A DNA stretch of 64,000 bases from Promethearchaeota archaeon (lineage in GTDB: Archaea; Asgardarchaeota; Lokiarchaeia; Sigyniarchaeales; SOKP01): the NCBI GenBank assembly GCA_016839705.1, contig JAEOTR010000048.1:1-64000 (forward strand), given 5' to 3'. The position numbers and the translations under genes are program-made. The notes under the pieces were generated by a model. That model saw only the letters and a program-made list of their open reading frames with translations. It searched no databases and had not been told where the DNA came from. This document shows positions 37,472 through 46,764 of the stretch, one piece after another; positions within the stretch are counted from its first letter, which is position 1, and the number at the start of each line of letters is the position of its first letter.

Positions 37472-40264
37472 ATGGCAAGTATTGTTAAGAATATCAATAA
37501 AATAAATCAACTTATTTCCGAAAATATCGAAGATATGATTTTCATATGTAATGAAAATATTGAATGTGAATACCACAATAATAAAGAATTGCAATATAGA
37601 AAGCATTTAATTGATTTTCTACATCCCAGTGACTCGAAACTAGTAGGTAACTTTATAAGAAATGTCTTTAAAATTGGATATGACAGAGAAGAATTTAGGA
37701 TAGCAGGTGATAATAACCTTTTCAAATGGTATGATATTAAGGGGAAAAGATTTGTTGACGATCAAAACAATAAAAAAGTTATTCTGATTTGTAGAGAAAT
37801 CAGCAAGTTAAAAAAACTAGAAAAAGATATTAAAGATAGTCAAATCAGATACGCTCAATTAGCAGATACTTTACCTGAAATTAATTATTGGAAACTTCTT
37901 CAATCTAAGGATAGTTTTACTGCTGTTCAAAAAGCTAGGGAAATGTTAGAAGTAATAATTAACAATATTCCTCAATTAATTTATTGGAAAGACATAAAGT
38001 TGAAATATTTAGGGTGTAATGCCAATTTTGCAGGAATAAATGGCTTGATTAATTCTTCTTCAATAATAGGTCGATCTGACGATGATTTAAAATGGGAAAT
38101 AGACAAGATCGCTTATATCCAAGAATGTGAACACAATGTAATAAAGAATAATGAGCCGGAATATAATGTCATTGAGCTTTTAAAAACAGTTGATGGAAAA
38201 CAAGCTTGGTATGAGATAAACAGAGTACCTCTACATAATATGAGTGGAAAGGTAGTAGGAATTCTTGTCACTTATGAGGATATCACAATTAGGAAGTTTT
38301 CTGAGCAAAAATTAAAAGAATCTGAAGAAAAATATAGAACTATATTCAACTCAAGTCCCGACTACATCTTCATAACCGATGTTGAGGGAAATATATTAGA
38401 CATGAACTTAGCATTATTAGATAGAATTGGGATGACATTAGAGGAGGTTCATGGAACGAATTTTGCGCAATTTTATGCTGGTGACAATCTTGACGAATTA
38501 TTATTGGCCCGGGATGAAATTGGAGCAGGAAAAGAAATTAAGGGATCTGAAGTTAAAGCCAGAGCCAAAACAGGAGAGATTTTTGAATATGAAGTAAATT
38601 CCGTACCAATTAAGGAAAATGGAAGAGTAGTAAAAGTTATTAATTTAGCCAGAGACGTTACCGATAAAAAAATTGCTGAAAAAAAATTGCAGAAATCGCA
38701 AGAAGATTTACGAGTTTTGAATAAGGAATTAGAACAAAAAATTAAAGAAAGAACTAAAGATTTAATAGAATCTGAAAGACAATATCGCACAACCATTGAT
38801 TTCTTGGGAGATCCTTTACATGTTGTAGACAGAGATCTAAGAATAATTTTGGTAAATCAACCATTCAAGAGATGGCTAAATGAACTAAATATTGAAGCCG
38901 AAATACTTAGAAAGAAAATTCCTGAGATTTTTCCATTTTTACCCCCTAAAATATATGATGAATACGCGAAAGTATTTGATACTGGTAGTCCTCTTATTAC
39001 AATGGAATCTACTTCGGTACAAGAACGTAATTTGATCACAGAAACTCGAAAAATTCCGATTTTTAGTGAAGGAAGGGTTGAACAGGTAATTACAATAATT
39101 AGAGATGTCACTGAGAGTAGGGAAATGGAACATCAATTAAAAGAATCTGAGGAAAAGTATAGAAACATGGTAAATTACTTAGATCTAGGATTTTATAAAG
39201 GGGAATACAGAGGTAAGCTTCTAATGCATAATCAAGCATTTAATGAAATGTTAGGACTTAGACCAAATGAGAGTATCGTTGGTTTAGAATCATCTCAATT
39301 TTTTGTTAATCCAGAAGTGCAAAATAAATATTATTCAGAATTAGATGAAAAAGGAATTGTGAAACACTTCATTGCCCAAATTAAGAACTTTAATGAGGAA
39401 ATTATCGTTGTAGATTTGAATGCTCATGTAATATATGATTCAGATGGAAAACCTATGGAAATTGAGGGTACATTTGCAGATATTACTGAAAAATTCAAAT
39501 TGCAGCAAGATCTATTGGAATCTGAGAAAAAATTAAGAGAAAAAAATATTGAATTAATGAAGTTGGATGAAATTAAAAATGATTTTATAACAATGGCTGC
39601 ACATGAATTAAAAACACCATTAATCTCAATCTCAGGATATACTGATTATATATTAATAAAACATCGGAGTTATTTAACCCCTGAAATTACAGAAGATTTG
39701 AAGACTGTTCAAAGAAATGTCACTAGACTTGAGGTTTTAATGGACCAGTTATTAGAGGTCATGAAGATTGATGAAAATAAATTAAAACTCCAGAAACAAA
39801 AAGTTAACATCACAAAGATAATTAATGATTGTCTAGATGAATTAAGCTATTTGATTAATGAAAAAAATCTTGAGGTAATATTAAATATCAATCATGAAAT
39901 AATACTAAGCGTTGACCCAACTCGAATTTTCACTGTTTTTACAAATTTAATCTCTAACGCTATTAAATTTACACCAGATTATGGATGGATTGAAATTTCG
40001 AGTAAAAAAGCTGATAAGGAGTATGTCTTTGAAGTAAAAGATAATGGAATAGGATTGGCTGAAGATGAAATATCTCGATTATTTATAAAATTCGAAAGGA
40101 TTAAACAACCAAATCTTAATGAAAGCGTTACTATAAATGATAGCGGAACGGGTTTAGGTTTATATATCACTAAAGGAATTGTTAATTTACATAAGGGGGA
40201 GATTCGAGCAAGTTCTGATGGATTAGATAAAGGAGCTACATTTACCTTTACTTTGCCAATTTAA
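37472..40264 (+). CDS. Multi-PAS sensor histidine kinase
   Basis: Several PAS/PAC repeats (ESEEKYR); H-box AHELKTPL, N-box NLISNAIKFT, DNGIG, GTGLGL. Confidence 0.95.
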   Translation: MASIVKNINKINQLISENIEDMIFICNENIECEYHNNKELQYRKHLIDFLHPSDSKLVGNFIRNVFKIGYDREEFRIAGDNNLFKWYDIKGKRFVDDQNNKKVILICREISKLKKLEKDIKDSQIRYAQLADTLPEINYWKLLQSKDSFTAVQKAREMLEVIINNIPQLIYWKDIKLKYLGCNANFAGINGLINSSSIIGRSDDDLKWEIDKIAYIQECEHNVIKNNEPEYNVIELLKTVDGKQAWYEINRVPLHNMSGKVVGILVTYEDITIRKFSEQKLKESEEKYRTIFNSSPDYIFITDVEGNILDMNLALLDRIGMTLEEVHGTNFAQFYAGDNLDELLLARDEIGAGKEIKGSEVKARAKTGEIFEYEVNSVPIKENGRVVKVINLARDVTDKKIAEKKLQKSQEDLRVLNKELEQKIKERTKDLIESERQYRTTIDFLGDPLHVVDRDLRIILVNQPFKRWLNELNIEAEILRKKIPEIFPFLPPKIYDEYAKVFDTGSPLITMESTSVQERNLITETRKIPIFSEGRVEQVITIIRDVTESREMEHQLKESEEKYRNMVNYLDLGFYKGEYRGKLLMHNQAFNEMLGLRPNESIVGLESSQFFVNPEVQNKYYSELDEKGIVKHFIAQIKNFNEEIIVVDLNAHVIYDSDGKPMEIEGTFADITEKFKLQQDLLESEKKLREKNIELMKLDEIKNDFITMAAHELKTPLISISGYTDYILIKHRSYLTPEITEDLKTVQRNVTRLEVLMDQLLEVMKIDENKLKLQKQKVNITKIINDCLDELSYLINEKNLEVILNINHEIILSVDPTRIFTVFTNLISNAIKFTPDYGWIEISSKKADKEYVFEVKDNGIGLAEDEISRLFIKFERIKQPNLNESVTINDSGTGLGLYITKGIVNLHKGEIRASSDGLDKGATFTFTLPI

Positions 40265-40392
40265 AAATATTTCATTCGAGCGAATAATATACCAATATAG
40301 TAATTTGGATATTTTTTCTTTAATAACAAACAGAAATTTATTTATCTGTTATAATTTATTATTTGAATTTCGGAACATATCATACAGTCATT

Positions 40393-42543
40393 ATGTCAAC
40401 ATTAATAATAGCTGAGAAAAATAAAGCAGCAGAGGCTATAGCAAAAGCAATTGGGACAGTTAAAGTAATAAATAAAACCAAATCGTTAAAGATCTACTCA
40501 ATTCCATCAAAAAATATATATGTAGTTCCGTTACGTGGTCATCTTCTCGAATATAGAAATACGGATGCGTATAAAAGTTGGACAAAATCAAATCCTAGAG
40601 AAATTATCACTAATTCTAATGCAATTGAAAAAGTCCCTGTAAGTTATGCACCTCCCTATATTAGTGCTTTAAAAGAATATTCTAAAATTTCGGATCATTG
40701 CATTATTGGAACTGATGCTGACATTGAAGGATGTAACATTGGGTTTTTTGACGCTCTCCCTTATGTTAAGAACATAAACCCAAATATAAAAATCTCACAA
40801 ATGTGGCTTAGTTCACTCCAACCTAACGAAATTAACACTAAATTCAAAAATTTAATAACCCCAAAATACAGTTGGGGTGAATCAGGTGAGGCAAGAGCAA
40901 TTATTGATGCGATTATTGGTTTTTCTGCTACTAGAGAAGTCACCAATACTCTTCGTCTTTTATTAAATAAATTTGGCGTTAAGTTTACTTCAATTGGTAG
41001 AGTTCAGACCAGTCTTCTCTATTTAATCTATTTGAAAGAAAAAGATACCGAGAACTTTGTCCCAGAACTCTATTTTTTAATAGATGCGGTTTTACATCAT
41101 CAAAATGGGACATTTAAAGCACATCATTTATCAAATCCTTTTAAACATAATTTTGAATCCAAGGCACGACAAATTTTTCAAAAAATTCAAAAGGAAAAAA
41201 TTGCTAAAGTTGTGGATATATCTAAAAAACCTAGAAAAAGAAAACCACCGAGTCCTTTAAATACGTCAAAAGCACTAATCCTTCTGACTAAAAATTTAAA
41301 AATTCCCGCAAATTTTGCCTTGAAAACTATGAATGCGTTATACCTTAATAAAATAATATCCTACCCTCGGACAGATAGTGATGTCTACACACCAGAATTC
41401 AATCATACAGATATTTTAGATAAATTCACATCTCATTCTCAATTTGGCTCATATAGTATTAGTTTAATTAGAAATAAGAGAAAAACACCCACTAAGGGAA
41501 AAAAAGATGCAGGGGACCATCCACCAATTACTCCTCTTGAGAGTGTAGAAGAAAATAGTACAAAATTTGAAAATGAATTACAGAAAAAAGTATATAATCT
41601 ACTTGCACGACATTACTTAGCCTTATTTGGTGAAGACGCAACTGAGTCTACTCAAGTTTTAAATCTTCTTATTAAGGATGAAGCTTTTAAAGCTCAGCGA
41701 GTTTCATTAATCATAAAAGGATTTTTAGAAATTGCTCCGTTTCTCACACCCAAATATGAAGAAGAAATACAAATTTCGAGAAATGAATTACCAATAGAAG
41801 AAATTACCTTCAACCAAAAAGAAACCACACCACCCCCAAGATTCAATGATACATCCTTACTAAAATTGATGGAAAAAAATCATCTTGGAACAAAATCCAC
41901 ACGACCTCAAATAATTTACCTATTACAAAAGCGACAAGTGATAAAAAGAGTTAAATATCAATATTTAATAACAGATTTGGGTAAATTTATTATCGAAAGT
42001 TTGATTTCAATATGGTTACCCTTCCTTAAACCTGATTTTACAAAAATGATTGAAGAAAAGCTCGAAGATATTAAAGAAATGAGAGAAAAAATGCACAACG
42101 TTGTGGATGAAATAAGAATAGAGTTTTTGAAACTATTCGACAAGTTTCTAGCCAAAAAACAAGAGTTAACTTCGAAAGCTAATAATTATAAAATGAACTT
42201 CACGATACCTCTGACATCAACCAATTGTCCATTTTGCCATACTAACCCTATGAAATTTATTAATTTAAAAGCTAAAAGATTTCTAGTGTGCTCAGATGAA
42301 AGTTGTAAAAAATTTTTATCATTACCCAAGAAAGGAAAATTAGAATTATTAGATTCTGTTTGCTCGATTTGTAATTTCAATATTTTTAAAATATCCCTTC
42401 AGAAAAATCAAAAATTTTATACCTATTATCTGTGCCCTAAATGTTGGAATGATGGGTTTCAAGATAATCCTGAAAAAGGAAAAGGTTTCTGTTCTAACTG
42501 TAAAGACTTCAAAATTTCTAAAGATCAATGTATAAAAAAGTAA
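40393..42543 (+). CDS. topA: Type IA DNA topoisomerase (Topo III-like) with C-terminal zinc fingers
   Basis: IIAEK, TDADIEG, SIGRVQT, catalytic SYPRTDS, DHPPITP, and a Cys-rich tail. Confidence 0.93.
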   Translation: MSTLIIAEKNKAAEAIAKAIGTVKVINKTKSLKIYSIPSKNIYVVPLRGHLLEYRNTDAYKSWTKSNPREIITNSNAIEKVPVSYAPPYISALKEYSKISDHCIIGTDADIEGCNIGFFDALPYVKNINPNIKISQMWLSSLQPNEINTKFKNLITPKYSWGESGEARAIIDAIIGFSATREVTNTLRLLLNKFGVKFTSIGRVQTSLLYLIYLKEKDTENFVPELYFLIDAVLHHQNGTFKAHHLSNPFKHNFESKARQIFQKIQKEKIAKVVDISKKPRKRKPPSPLNTSKALILLTKNLKIPANFALKTMNALYLNKIISYPRTDSDVYTPEFNHTDILDKFTSHSQFGSYSISLIRNKRKTPTKGKKDAGDHPPITPLESVEENSTKFENELQKKVYNLLARHYLALFGEDATESTQVLNLLIKDEAFKAQRVSLIIKGFLEIAPFLTPKYEEEIQISRNELPIEEITFNQKETTPPPRFNDTSLLKLMEKNHLGTKSTRPQIIYLLQKRQVIKRVKYQYLITDLGKFIIESLISIWLPFLKPDFTKMIEEKLEDIKEMREKMHNVVDEIRIEFLKLFDKFLAKKQELTSKANNYKMNFTIPLTSTNCPFCHTNPMKFINLKAKRFLVCSDESCKKFLSLPKKGKLELLDSVCSICNFNIFKISLQKNQKFYTYYLCPKCWNDGFQDNPEKGKGFCSNCKDFKISKDQCIKK

Positions 42544-42589: not shown

Positions 42590-42928
42590 CTAAAAGAATT
42601 TCTTAACATCAAACCGATAAGCTGCTCTTGTTAAGCCAACATAATTGTCCGTAATCTTGTAAAACAGTTTTTCATTAACAAGTTTTTTCTGTAAATAGTT
42701 ATTTTTAATCAAATGATTTAAAGAATTAATCATGGTTCCTAACGTAACCGCGCCAACAAATCCATGTTGTTTCTTGGTAACCCTAATTAATTCAAGTTCA
42801 GAATGCCATTGTCCATCAAGAAGAGCCCTTAAAATATCATTCTTAATAGGGGTTTTTATATCTTTAATTTTATTGAACAAAACTGAATATATAGGATTAT
42901 AATATCTTTCCTGCTCTTTTTCTTCCAT
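42590..42928 (-). CDS. Winged-helix DNA-binding-like protein
   Basis: ILRALLDGQWHSELELIR...GAVTLGTMINSL...LQKKLVNEKLFYKI. Confidence 0.65.
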   Translation of the reverse strand: MEEKEQERYYNPIYSVLFNKIKDIKTPIKNDILRALLDGQWHSELELIRVTKKQHGFVGAVTLGTMINSLNHLIKNNYLQKKLVNEKLFYKITDNYVGLTRAAYRFDVKKFF

Positions 42929-42996
42929 TCTTCAATATCACTTTGCAAAACGCTTCTAATGTGATTTTATACTTAACCTTATTATTTAACTAAATG

Positions 42997-43104
42997 TAAT
43001 ATCGCTGTAATACCTAATTTTTGTCTTAATATTGTAATAATGTTTTTTTATCTTGTATGTTATGATTAACTCATAACATTTTGTACATAATATCGCTGTA
43101 ATAC
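42997..43104. promoter_or_regulatory. Operator-like region: two identical 17-bp direct repeats flanking a 9-5-9 palindrome
   Basis: TAATATCGCTGTAATAC at 42997-43013 and 43088-43104; ATGTTATGA-ttaac-TCATAACAT at 43057-43079. Confidence 0.65.
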
Positions 43105-43119
43105 TGATGAATGTGGTAT

Positions 43120-44241
43120 CTAAAGTAAATTAGGTGGAATCCCCTCATCAAAATATTTTACACGGGATATCCAGTTTTCTGAAAATTCCGGGATCTTTGC
43201 TAATATAGAACCTCCAATCCATACAGAAAAAGTTCTCTCTTGAGGAGCAATAATTCTTACGCTCTGGTTTTTTTTCTTCCTCCTGGCTAATTCAAGTTCT
43301 AATTCCTGATACATTCTTGATTTTAAATTAGGAAACATTGAAGAACCACCACTTAAAAAAATATTATTTAATAATTCTGGTCGAATATCCAAATCACAAG
43401 CTTCTATTACATCCAAAATTGCCACCGGTAGGGAATCCTCCTCTAATTCAGGAGATGGATTAAATAAAAGCTCTGGAACTATAAACCGTTCATTATGCAA
43501 TGAGATTGTTGAACCATCTGGTAAAGAATAGTCTTTATTATACTGTTCACTTCTTTTCAAATCCTCTTTATAATCTAAAGAAACAAAACAAGCTTTTTCT
43601 TTTAAAACTCTTACTAATTCTCTTCGAATAGAAGAATCAACCGACCAGCCAATAGATTCCAAGATTTTTTCCATATAATGAGTCAGTACCCTACCCCCAA
43701 TTTCTAGAATTCTTACCGCATGATTTAATTTATATCCTTCATAAATGGGTACAATTCTGGTATTGCTATCTCCAATTTCAATAATTAAACCTGTTTGAAA
43801 TCCCCCTGAATATAAAGTAAGCATCGAATCTAAAACAGGATAAAAATTCATACACTGAAGTCTTCCTAAAAAAAGTTCAAAAATTTTTTCCAAATCCTTA
43901 CGGGGGAATAAGGGATGGACGGCTAGTAGGACATTAACTAGAGAGGGATCAACTCTTAAATTATAGAAAATATAATCCACAATGTTTTCAAAATGCTTCC
44001 AATCAATAATAATCCCTTTTTCTATTGGATGAAAAATCTTATAAAGGCCAATAGATTGGATTTCATCTCCTACATAAAGTTCATCTTCTCGACTTTTAGC
44101 AGTTGAATAATCAATGCTTACACTTTGATATTTCGGTTTCCCAACCATCGTTAAGAAAACTTGAGCTGGAGAATCCTCTCCTGCAAATCCTATTTTAGTA
44201 GAAAATTGGCCAATATCAATAACAACAGTAAGATTTACCAT
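43120..44241 (-). CDS. Actin-related protein (divergent Asgard actin paralogue)
   Basis: VVIDIG..STKIGFAGEDSP, YVGDE, IVPIYEGY, LKEKACFV, YSLPDG, ERFIVPELLF, LSGGSSMFP, SVWIGGSILA. Confidence 0.93.
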   Translation of the reverse strand: MVNLTVVIDIGQFSTKIGFAGEDSPAQVFLTMVGKPKYQSVSIDYSTAKSREDELYVGDEIQSIGLYKIFHPIEKGIIIDWKHFENIVDYIFYNLRVDPSLVNVLLAVHPLFPRKDLEKIFELFLGRLQCMNFYPVLDSMLTLYSGGFQTGLIIEIGDSNTRIVPIYEGYKLNHAVRILEIGGRVLTHYMEKILESIGWSVDSSIRRELVRVLKEKACFVSLDYKEDLKRSEQYNKDYSLPDGSTISLHNERFIVPELLFNPSPELEEDSLPVAILDVIEACDLDIRPELLNNIFLSGGSSMFPNLKSRMYQELELELARRKKKNQSVRIIAPQERTFSVWIGGSILAKIPEFSENWISRVKYFDEGIPPNLL

Positions 44242-44571
44242 TCTTCCCTTCGAAAATTGCTTATTATTTAATTTCTAATTAATATTATAATCCTAATTAT
44301 TTTAATTAGTATTACACTACCAAAACTTTCTAGAAGACCTTTAATATAAAACTCTTTTTTTTCCTATAAAAAATCTTATACTATCAATACGATAAATTTA
44401 TCTAAAAGTACATTAAAATAATTGATATTTTTCCTTCAAAGGTTTCCCCTCAACTAAATCATAAATAACAAGCGTACTATAATACATGTCCAAAAATGTT
44501 AAGATATATATTAAAAGGAGTTTTAAATGATATTACAACAAATGAAATTCTAATTCAAATGAATTAAATAA

Positions 44572-45132
44572 GTGATTTTAAGTATGGAAAAAAGATACAT
44601 ACCTCTTTTTATAATGCTGGGATTTATTATCATTCTGATTATAACCGCATTTGTCGCTGCTGTTTTTGGCGTTCCGATCATAGCATTAGATCAGTCAGAA
44701 ATCTCGATCGCATCATTTGATTATTGGTCATTAGGACATTTCCTATGGGGAGTTGGACTTTTCGTTATATTCTTCACATTTGGTTGGATTATCAAAAATT
44801 TAACGGATAGCCCAAAAGATCCTATTAATGAACCAGAGGTTAGAAGCTTCATCATATATTGGATAATTATTCTTATTATTGCGGGTCTTTGGGAAGTTGT
44901 TGAAAATACAATTCTTCATATGGTTAGTATCAAAGTTAAATTCGACAGTGCGGCAAATATAATAACTGATATAATTACATGGGGCATTGGTGGATGTGTG
45001 AGTTGGTATATGACAGATCTAATGTTTTTAAGCGACAAATATCTCAGAGCTTATTACCTCTATGGATTTATGTGCCTCGCAATGGGTATAATCATATTCG
45101 TATTCTTTGGTTTTGTTACAACTAATTACTAA
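44572..45132 (+). CDS. Membrane protein, DUF2585-like putative metal-binding
   Basis: DYWSLGHF, WEVVEN and DSAANIITD in TM context. Confidence 0.6.
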   Translation: MILSMEKRYIPLFIMLGFIIILIITAFVAAVFGVPIIALDQSEISIASFDYWSLGHFLWGVGLFVIFFTFGWIIKNLTDSPKDPINEPEVRSFIIYWIIILIIAGLWEVVENTILHMVSIKVKFDSAANIITDIITWGIGGCVSWYMTDLMFLSDKYLRAYYLYGFMCLAMGIIIFVFFGFVTTNY

Positions 45133-45333
45133 CCTCATTTTTTTTTCTTTCGTGGTGGATTTCATTTAAAATAGGAAAATTTATTCTTTAGTTACAAGAA
45201 TGCAATTTTCAGTTTTTTCGAATAAAAAGAATAAGATTTGAAAAGCTTTTCTAATGAGTATGTTATATTTCTGTTGATTTTATTGCTTTGGAAATATAAT
45301 AGGTTGAACTAGACAGCCCATTCGATGGATTGA

Positions 45334-46065
45334 TTATTCTCCGCGCATAATCTTTTTCAAACGGTTAAGCTCATCGAGCATCTCATCACGAAGAGAGCTT
45401 AAACCACCCCCCGTTTGAGGGGCTGCTGCTGCCGGAGGTGCTCCAGGTGTTTGAGGTGGACTAGCTGGAGGTGTGGCTCGTGGACCACTTGGAGGTGCGG
45501 CTGGTGGACCACTTGGTCTTTTCGCGAACGCAGGAGTTGCTGTTGGAGGTATAGGTGGTGCACCAGAGCTTGGAGCTTTAGGTGGTGCACCAGAGCTTGG
45601 AGCTTTAGGTGGTCCCGATGGAGGTAATTTTGGAGCAGGTGGTAGACTGCCGGCTTTCGGTGGGCCGCTAGGCGGTGCACTCGGTGGCGCACTAGGAGGC
45701 CCTGCAGGAGCCTTAGGCGGGCCACCACTAGTAGGAGGTACTGGTGCTGCGGTTAGTGATGCTGGTGCTGTTGTTGGTGCTGCTTGGCTTTCAGCACCCC
45801 CACTTAAAAGAGAAAACAAAGTACTAGCTGCTGCAGTTTTGGCGGTCCCCGATGATGAGGCAACAATCTTTTTCGAGGAAGTACTAACAGTTTGGACGTC
45901 TTCTCCAACAGTAATTTCCTTTAAGTCTTTTTGGGCTTTTGATAATGACTTGATAAAATCATTAATTCCTTTAACTGTTTCTCCTAAGTCATCAGCGAGG
46001 CTAGTTAAGCCTTTTTTCATAAAATTAATAACACGTTCGATCTTTTTTTGTTCTTTTGAAACCAC
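45334..46065 (-). CDS. Proline-rich protein with N-terminal coiled coil and C-terminal WH2/EVH2-like amphipathic helix
   Basis: GTG start; heptad-like aa 5-52; P/A/S/G-rich aa ~97-216; ends GGGLSSLRDEMLDELNRLKKIMRGE. Confidence 0.75.
   Translation of the reverse strand: MVSKEQKKIERVINFMKKGLTSLADDLGETVKGINDFIKSLSKAQKDLKEITVGEDVQTVSTSSKKIVASSSGTAKTAAASTLFSLLSGGAESQAAPTTAPASLTAAPVPPTSGGPPKAPAGPPSAPPSAPPSGPPKAGSLPPAPKLPPSGPPKAPSSGAPPKAPSSGAPPIPPTATPAFAKRPSGPPAAPPSGPRATPPASPPQTPGAPPAAAAPQTGGGLSSLRDEMLDELNRLKKIMRGE
45554..45613. repeat. Perfect 27-bp tandem duplication (encodes KAPSSGAPP twice)
   Basis: GGTGGTGCACCAGAGCTTGGAGCTTTA at 45554-45580 and 45581-45607, followed by GGTGGT. Confidence 0.95.
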
Positions 46066-46488
46066 GTCTCACTCAATTCCTCTGATTATGTTGTAATTAT
46101 GATTATAATTTTTATTATTAGTATTTTAATTATATTAATATCTATATATATAATAGACTTTTTCGTAATTTACTTATTGATATTTTTTTTTAAAATTTTT
46201 TTTTATAATTGCATTATAATTGTTTGATTATAAAAAATTATGTAGGTTTCGTATTGAACGTGTGATATTCATAGATAAAAAGAGAAAAAGCGATATTATT
46301 CGTAAATGATTTTTTAATCCCTCCTTAAATGATTCTTGAAACTACACAGTTTCCCAATCGTAAAAAAACGTTAATTATTAAAAAACCTAAACTAATAATA
46401 TTATATAACATATTTCATTAGTAAGTTTAAAAATTTTAAAAAATTCAATCCTCCAAAAATTCTTCAGAATTGAATAAATATAAAATAG

Positions 46489-46764
46489 GTGTTCAAAATA
46501 CCAAAACGAGAACTTTTTATTAAGCGGGTCTATGAGATCGTCAATGAGCTTAAAATCCCATTAATTGATGAGAGAGTATATGACAAAGTAAATTTCAATA
46601 CGGGAGCTTCAATCGCTAACGTAATTTTTAGATTCGAGGAAGATGAGTCAGTAATCCGAGGGTTTCTTGGTCTTGCGGAATATTTTCACACTGTGGTGAT
46701 CAAGAAAAAAGACGAGTTCTATATTCCGCATGCTTCAATTTTATTTCGTTTGCTGAGCGCATGA
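46489..46764 (+). CDS. Hypothetical protein
   Basis: 91-aa ORF with globular composition, followed by a T-tract. Confidence 0.7.
   Translation: MFKIPKRELFIKRVYEIVNELKIPLIDERVYDKVNFNTGASIANVIFRFEEDESVIRGFLGLAEYFHTVVIKKKDEFYIPHASILFRLLSA

Follow-up and report, generated by a model that had tools for sequence, protein, structure and literature searches.

To our knowledge, profilins and gelsolins are the only established actin regulators of Asgard archaea. In Pyrobaculum, arcadin-2 binds crenactin's hydrophobic groove with a conserved C-terminal helix located behind an unstructured linker, and ParR engages ParM alike (PMC5173319). A protein of similar layout is encoded in the stretch of DNA analysed here (the window, positions 1 to 64,000 of contig JAEOTR010000048.1), which belongs to a genome of Promethearchaeota, class Lokiarchaeia (GCA_016839705.1, termed G000; 3.36 Mb, ~30% G+C, 93% complete). 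This proline-rich protein of 243 amino acids (aa), termed PRO, is encoded at 45334..46065 on the minus strand, upstream of a divergent actin paralogue (ARP). As in arcadin-2 (Protein Data Bank (PDB) entry: 5LY3) and ParR, a folded or oligomeric body is followed by a non-conserved linker and a short conserved C-terminal helix, which in those systems is the sole contact to the partner. However, PRO has no detectable sequence similarity to arcadin-2, whose helix relies on a tryptophan that PRO lacks; its gene lies outside actin gene clusters except in one family, and its actin binding is putative. Judged by this layout, arcadin-2/crenactin and ParR/ParM are the closest working analogues of PRO. 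A first-pass annotation, made from the DNA letters alone, had read the locus as a candidate actin-regulation module composed of ARP, PRO as a nucleation-promoting factor (NPF) and a winged helix-turn-helix gene (wHTH). The four open reading frames (ORFs) it named, including a membrane ORF, lie in the ORF list exactly where it had placed them. Our analysis revealed that PRO is a member of a so far undescribed Asgard-wide family with an anchor, an arm and a terminal helix. We consider it rather likely that the locus is a syntenic block inherited in one Lokiarchaeial family and that PRO acts as an anchored tether with a docking tail.

PRO contains 19% proline and consists of a head, a short motif, an arm and a terminal helix, and its C-terminal part reads LRDEMLDELNRLKKIMRGE. 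The head (residues ~1-55) is helical with heptad-like spacing. Behind it, at residues ~78-90 (45796-45834, minus strand), lies the short motif AASTLFSLLSGG, followed by the proline-rich arm (residues ~95-220) with GPPxA/GPPS elements, in which proline runs do not exceed two residues (four in the class). The terminal helix (residues 219-243, GGGLSSLRDEMLDELNRLKKIMRGE; 45337-45411, minus strand) is amphipathic and follows, over 16-18 residues, the family consensus [GS]L[RKQ]xEMLxE[LMI]x[RK]LKx[ILFY][MF]. Its last 18 residues are essentially invariant across Lokiarchaeia, where the heads are only 33-45% identical. The coiled-coil and proline-rich parts described in the first-pass annotation were recovered as a helical head and a flexible arm, followed by an amphipathic terminal helix, but its WH2-like label is an interpretation that failed the comparisons given below. 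The PRO sense ORF was open in 25 of 25 loci; the antisense open stretch covered 27-86% of the gene.

The short motif varies between families, which are given here as codes (f1, f2 and so on). It reads TLFSLL in the window, EDLWSVL in f8, DSLFDFL in f17, TVFDMF in f13 and DVFGMF in f24. The core of these variants is [FWI]xx[LF], often preceded by acidic residues, and is similar to short linear motifs used for docking. This motif may be a contact site for the product of a neighboring gene, orf91, described below.

Distribution was assessed in 301 sampled Asgard genomes; these samples are draws, and related genomes among them are not independent. The family profile, for which alignments A1 and A3 were started from the window PRO, gave full-length or arm-plus-tail matches in 179 of them. 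A tail of identical type was found on soluble-head as well as on transmembrane (TM)-anchored proteins in more than 15 GTDB families, and inspection of 20 loci revealed these two anchors. The soluble form, present in Lokiarchaeia and several other families, carries a helical head of ~60 aa with a short motif of the [FWI]xx[LF] type. The second form, from other Asgard classes, carries an N-terminal TM helix with a coiled coil and comprises 300-350 aa (570 aa in f27). Because basic residues follow the TM helix, the arm and tail of this form should be cytoplasmic according to the positive-inside rule. The neighborhoods of the TM-anchored genes contain housekeeping genes (RpiA, PIN-ATPase-KH, tRNA endonuclease) and gave no functional hint. 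In G000, PRO is the single carrier of the tail (E 5e-13; next match 0.024); a second candidate at C1:51624-52085 was rejected, as the weak match falls inside a zinc-ribbon protein. A Pfam search of PRO returned no family, a search of the ESM Atlas returned only a cluster of "hypothetical" Promethearchaeota proteins, and no description of the family was found in a literature search. In L. ossiferum B-35, the PRO homolog is located at L069:6381-7073:+ (G055:C1, ~729-730 kb). The gene model at this locus (UYP44328.1, NEF87_000613) is the antisense ORF, listed as "collagen-like" in UniRef, and the sense protein was absent from a collection of 15 billion proteins. Proteomic or co-immunoprecipitation (Co-IP) searches based on the L. 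ossiferum annotation therefore cannot detect PRO.

The terminal helix was compared with known actin-binding elements. In PRO, as in WASP and WAVE proteins, an amphipathic helix with an LKK triplet stands behind a proline-rich region, and this likeness speaks for the model of the first-pass annotation, in which PRO is an NPF or an Ena/VASP-like protein. Its WH2-like tail would deliver actin to the neighboring, non-polymerizing ARP or activate this ARP, and wHTH would regulate the set. In WH2 motifs, a three-turn helix is followed by a linker and an extended LKK[TV], with ~5 residues between the helix element and LKK. In contrast, across 16 PRO tails representing more than 12 families, the ML..L element and LKK are only two residues apart, and a hydrophobic pair, [ILFY][MF] (I-M in PRO), comes after LKK, so that LKK lies inside a continuing helical hydrophobic stripe. 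Neither whole PRO nor its last 28 aa matched the PF02205 hidden Markov model (HMM) of WH2 at E<=10, a search in which the HMMER filters drop very weak matches. Moreover, PRO lacks the connector, the acidic-tryptophan segment and the GBD, WH1 and SCAR domains of WASP/WAVE proteins. Its sequence ends in ...KKIMRGE without an acidic tail, and tryptophan was absent in 11 of 11 family members. With Ena/VASP proteins PRO shares an oligomerizing coiled coil, a proline-rich middle part and a short helix of actin-binding type, but in permuted order, its sole coil being N-terminal. No Pfam match to EVH1 or to the VASP tetramerization domain was obtained in PRO, and its longest proline run is two. No defining feature of a WH2/WCA or Ena/VASP protein was thus found in PRO, and this part of the first-pass annotation is not supported. 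A comparison with the VASP GAB peptide was dropped and none is claimed, as the query peptide retrieved no VASP chain in the PDB.

A second known element with which the tail was compared is the MIT-interacting motif (MIM1) of ESCRT-III proteins, likewise a leucine-rich amphipathic helix at the extreme C-terminus, ending in L-[KR]-K behind an acidic or proline-rich flexible segment. If the tail were such a motif, PRO would bring a protein with an MIT domain, Vps4 or another, to a scaffold or membrane, and the arm might add MIM2-like contacts. Asgard Vps2/24/46 proteins are reported to end in Leu/Ile-rich MIM1-like helices and Vps20/32/60 proteins in proline-rich MIM2-like ones (PMC7240154). The Vps2/24/46-type ESCRT-III protein of G000 (G000:C88:53715-54362) ends in ...KEKLQDEIDKLRKELES and the f17 homologs in ...RELERLKKEVKE. 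When aligned in register, the extreme C-termini of these proteins and of PRO have the pattern hydrophobic-x-x-E-hydrophobic-x-[KR]-L-[KR]-K-x-hydrophobic in common. Nevertheless, the canonical consensus (D/E)xxLxxRLxxL(K/R) is missed at two charged positions: in the best register (M229-x-x-E232-L233-x-x-L236-K237), the arginine position is occupied by the invariant E232 and the acidic position at -3 by R226. Scored with a position-specific scoring matrix (PSSM) of PRO tails, the ESCRT-III tail of G000 ranked 332 among 3615 C-terminal tails. The ESCRT-III tail was consequently discarded as a close look-alike, since it shares a pattern with PRO but is not statistically distinct. PRO also has no Snf7 match, that is, no ESCRT-III core, and was found beside ESCRT genes in none of 23 compared loci. 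A MIM1-like adaptor is therefore an unlikely explanation.

The sequence tests (WH2 HMM, PDB profile and PSSM) name no partner of the tail. Taken together with the arcadin-2 and ParR analogs, they lead us to commit to an anchored tether that docks onto a slowly evolving cytoplasmic protein. The anchor would fix the protein to a scaffold or membrane, the proline-rich arm would serve as a spacer, and the terminal helix, which probably docks onto a conserved partner, would occupy a groove of that partner. The barbed-end hydrophobic cleft of an actin-family protein is our preferred candidate for this groove, although a tentative one. By analogy with arcadin-2/crenactin and ParR/ParM, we favor Lokiactin over the ARP of this locus specifically. 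The complete proposal, in which the tail docks in the barbed-end cleft of Lokiactin and ARP is one possible additional client in a single family, is possible but doubtful.

Several observations weigh against the tether reading or its actin partner. The near-invariance of the tail speaks for a conserved partner but points to none in particular. Searching the PDB with the tail profile retrieved generic coiled coils only (GCN4, E 0.035), so that the tail could equally be a self-association element. The main text of a Lokiactin Co-IP study in L. ossiferum names no PRO-like protein (bioRxiv 10.1101/2025.11.30.690169); this experiment was probably blind to PRO, since the recorded gene model at that locus, UYP44328.1, represents the antisense ORF. 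Finally, a published study reported no binding of VASP polyproline by the profilins of Loki and Odin (PMC8410842), and PRO itself has no polyproline tract. The coiled-coil matches raise the alternative that the tail pairs with the head or with other tails, forming a coiled-coil or brush-like scaffold without an external partner. The best PDB matches, designed and GCN4 coiled coils with E-x-x-RLKK[LI], would agree with this, as would the helical head with its heptad-like spacing. However, within a class whose heads have diverged, the tail stays invariant, and the same tail is carried by unrelated anchors, a TM helix or a soluble head, which argues against co-evolution of the tail with the head. 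We regard self-assembly as improbable, to about the same degree as the MIM1-like adaptor.

The PRO family bears on the question of how Lokiactin is attached to membranes or nucleated in models of eukaryogenesis. It offers a concrete candidate, as it occurs in most sampled Asgard lineages, comprises soluble and membrane forms and has a putative docking helix conserved above most of the protein. If docking onto Lokiactin is true, the TM-anchored forms would represent membrane-actin tethers, the first known from archaea, and the soluble ones, together with orf91, would be scaffold-actin tethers. The family would then represent an Asgard-wide class of cleft-binding actin regulators that predate or parallel eukaryotic WH2 proteins. 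Should the partner be Vps4 or another protein, PRO would still represent a new Asgard-wide adaptor family.

The ARP gene (43120..44241, minus strand, 373 aa) matched PF00022 over residues 5-367 (E 9.4e-89, 298 bits, cut-off 27). Its best PDB matches were actins (E ~1e-86, ~290 bits), and it is 42-43% identical to the Lokiactin of G000, which is encoded at G000:C32:98134-99246. Three actin-family genes were found in this genome: Lokiactin (441 bits), ARP (294 bits) and a third within a 508-aa ORF. The ARP clade was detected in 72 of the 301 genomes, only in f1 and f2 of one order, a number that includes three borderline f20 matches. The altered catalytic residues noted in the first-pass annotation were confirmed and extend over the whole clade. 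Of the ATPase set (a G-[ST]-G P1 loop, Q137 and H161), Lokiactin retains all, whereas ARP retains none. The P1 loop reads DIGQFSTK instead of DNGTGISK in Lokiactin, with the clade-wide pattern D-x-G-[QE]-[FY]-S-x-K; Q137 is replaced by D in f1 and by G in f2, and H161 by R in all ARP orthologs. Retained throughout the clade are K18, D11 and the adenine motif SGGSSMFP, which makes nucleotide binding likely. Mean column identity in the same seven genomes was 0.56 for ARP versus 0.88 for Lokiactin. The D-loop of ARP contains indels, while the barbed-end cleft motif LYSGGFxTG is invariant; a conserved cleft with a drifting D-loop is the pattern that would be expected of a pointed-end template, and in this respect it agrees with the proposed NPF model. 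ARP is a separate, order-restricted actin paralog that has lost the water-activating pair Q137/H161, and these residue patterns make it probably a nucleotide-binding, hydrolysis-impaired one that uses its barbed-end face.

The ortholog of ARP in L. ossiferum is UYP44126.1 (51% identity), which belongs to the same clade and differs from the window ARP only by sequence divergence. It is among the three "ARPs" that this organism has besides Lokiactin and that were reported to be transcribed below Lokiactin (Rodrigues-Oliveira et al., PMC9834061); the published tree places it among the "ARPs" without a class (PMC9834061). The third actin-family gene of G000 (G000:C27:18036-18977, minus strand) matched PF00022 with 206 bits over profile positions 6-354. 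Its orthologs in most relatives comprise ~500-560 aa, and these lengths point to an actin fold with a long C-terminal extension. In f2 (Ca. Harpocratesius repetitus, L. ossiferum and G050), a Ras-family GTPase gene directly precedes ARP on the same strand (L072:4791-5381:+, L073:6726-7295:- and L074:7280-7864:-; PF00071, E 1e-40; UYP44127.1). This GTPase-ARP pair (UYP44127.1/UYP44126.1) is kept across three f2 genera; in the f2 genome G042, a PIG-L gene and not a GTPase gene precedes ARP. Profilin and gelsolin genes lie elsewhere in the G000 genome. A search of G000 for ARPC4 (PF05856) gave no match, but this search lacked a positive control, as the control genomes gave none either.

The physical linkage of PRO and ARP was compared across f1 and its sister family f2, which belong to one order; nine f1 genera were sampled (g1 and g18 to g25). 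PRO lies upstream of ARP on the same strand in nine of nine f1 genera, at ARP identities ranging from 62% to 93%. The linkage is thus not random, and the suggestion of the first-pass annotation that it may be due to chance does not hold. This same-strand linkage agrees with the NPF model, but it did not extend beyond f1: in f2, PRO and ARP are 44-270 kb apart (G042, G044, G050 and G055). The gap between the two genes in f1 is either 130-480 bp or 0.9-2 kb. Where the gap is long, as in the majority of f1 genera and also in several members of this genus, it contains an unrelated PIG-L deacetylase gene on the same strand (PF02585, 248-250 aa). Furthermore, ARP has its own promoter-like block with a TATA-like AT-rich box in the 130 nt upstream of its start (44242..44371, minus strand), which the alignment showed to be conserved in ~25 genomes whether PRO or PIG-L lies upstream. 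An operon is accordingly not supported, and the first-pass annotation had itself stated that the genes are not one operon. The PIG-L insert, the separate ARP promoter block and the separation in f2 together indicate that the linkage is inherited synteny of one family.

The gene order in f1 is phosphoribosyltransferase ... orf91 <> PRO > (PIG-L) > ARP > wHTH ... topoisomerase, histidine kinase, and synteny spans this whole region from the phosphoribosyltransferase gene to the topoisomerase and histidine-kinase genes. Co-occurrence did not favor a common system either, as PRO is present in many Asgard lineages without the ARP clade (179 versus 72 of 301 genomes). The linkage is therefore weak evidence for a common function. 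A dedicated ARP-NPF module would be the more striking interpretation, but it is not carried by the genomic evidence, and together with the tail features described above these data make the NPF or Ena/VASP-like model very unlikely.

G000 lacks this PIG-L gene. Its PRO-ARP gap contains instead the opposite-strand membrane gene reported in the first-pass annotation, an ORF of 186 aa with multiple TM segments (44572..45132, plus strand), at a position that in relatives is either taken by PIG-L or empty. By tblastn this lineage-specific ORF was found at the locus only in G000, with two paralogs of 28% identity elsewhere in the same genome. It had no Pfam match and belongs to no conserved unit.

The wHTH gene (42590..42928, minus strand) encodes a protein of 112 aa with a C-terminal helix and was characterized by its ORF, profile, AlphaFold2 (AF2) model, Foldseek matches and synteny. 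Its sequence gave no match in Pfam, and its family profile retrieved AspA at E 0.003. The AF2 model (predicted local distance difference test (pLDDT) 80) shows the secondary structure H-H-H-H-E-E-H, and Foldseek matched it with probability 1.0 and TM-scores of ~0.55-0.60 to the winged-helix DNA binders RosR, Sso10a-2, TubR and AspA, and also to HlyU and MarR. On the basis of this model, which has the three-helix bundle and beta-hairpin wing of the winged-helix fold, the prediction of a wHTH gene in the first-pass annotation is borne out, and its product is predicted to be a dimeric regulator of ordinary winged-helix type, the gene having a promoter of its own. Each of the sampled f1 genera has the gene downstream of ARP, with a duplication in some of them.

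The 191-bp spacer between ARP and wHTH (42929..43119, minus strand) contains a 17-mer that is directly repeated (42997-43013 and 43088-43104), together with a palindrome of the 9-5-9 type (43057-43079). These operator-like repeats, which had been noticed before, are real: three matches with at most three mismatches were seen where 0.27 were expected by chance. In 28 further genomes of the genus, however, the corresponding spacer comprises 90-140 bp and lacks them, and a conserved operator was rejected for this reason. The wHTH-proximal copy overlaps a genus-conserved promoter-like element (GATATTACATTT...TAAATAA), and the alignment showed that an insert of ~80-90 bp, private to G000, is made up of the distal copy and the palindrome. 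An operator common to the wHTH and PRO promoters was also rejected, since 26 of 27 genomes in the genus showed no box of the wHTH type upstream of PRO. Nothing thus links the wHTH regulator to PRO, and this speaks further against the regulated set proposed in the NPF model.

Two genes of the syntenic block flank the wHTH gene on its far side and are syntenic across f1: a type IA topoisomerase-like gene (726 aa, 40363-42543, plus strand) and a gene for a multi-PAS histidine kinase (930 aa, 37472-40264, plus strand).

On the other side of PRO, just outside the region of the first-pass annotation, orf91 (46489..46764, plus strand, 91 aa) is divergently oriented and separated from PRO by an intergenic region of 423 bp (46066..46488). 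Its product is conserved across the class with 56-95% identity, and homologs were found in 97 of the 301 genomes. orf91 is the steadiest genomic neighbor of soluble-head PRO genes in several Asgard families and lies within ~0.1-3 kb of PRO in f1, f5, f6, f7, f8, f17, f24 and f26, the two genes being divergent, convergent or in tandem (for example G072:C2, G102:C21, G120:C29 and L091). Among the TM-anchored lineages, the search yielded no homolog in f10, f21, f27 and f32, and f12 had one in only 3 of 76 genomes, all of one genus. From this distribution we infer an association of orf91 with the soluble head rather than the tail. An AF2 model (pLDDT 87) predicted an alpha/beta protein. For this fold, Foldseek gave no match at E<=0.001, and the best hit in a wide search with VIA-align, to histidine-kinase CA domains (Z 4.2), was under the stated noise level of the tool. 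The ESM Atlas contained only clusters of "hypothetical" Promethearchaeota proteins related to orf91.

An insert of 30 nt (L029:2523-2552) interrupts the orf91 homolog of G023 at a fixed codon boundary (..LF|IK..) and includes a TAG in frame. Comparable orf91 rows, with one TAG or TGA and a length of 294-300 bp, were seen in G245, G266, G291, G227, G142 and G299. The insert and its flanks were predicted to fold into an exon helix, an internal loop and an 11-bp hairpin (dG -17.5, z -2.75). The insert is a candidate mini-intron in a protein-coding gene, with a structure that differs from the canonical bulge-helix-bulge.

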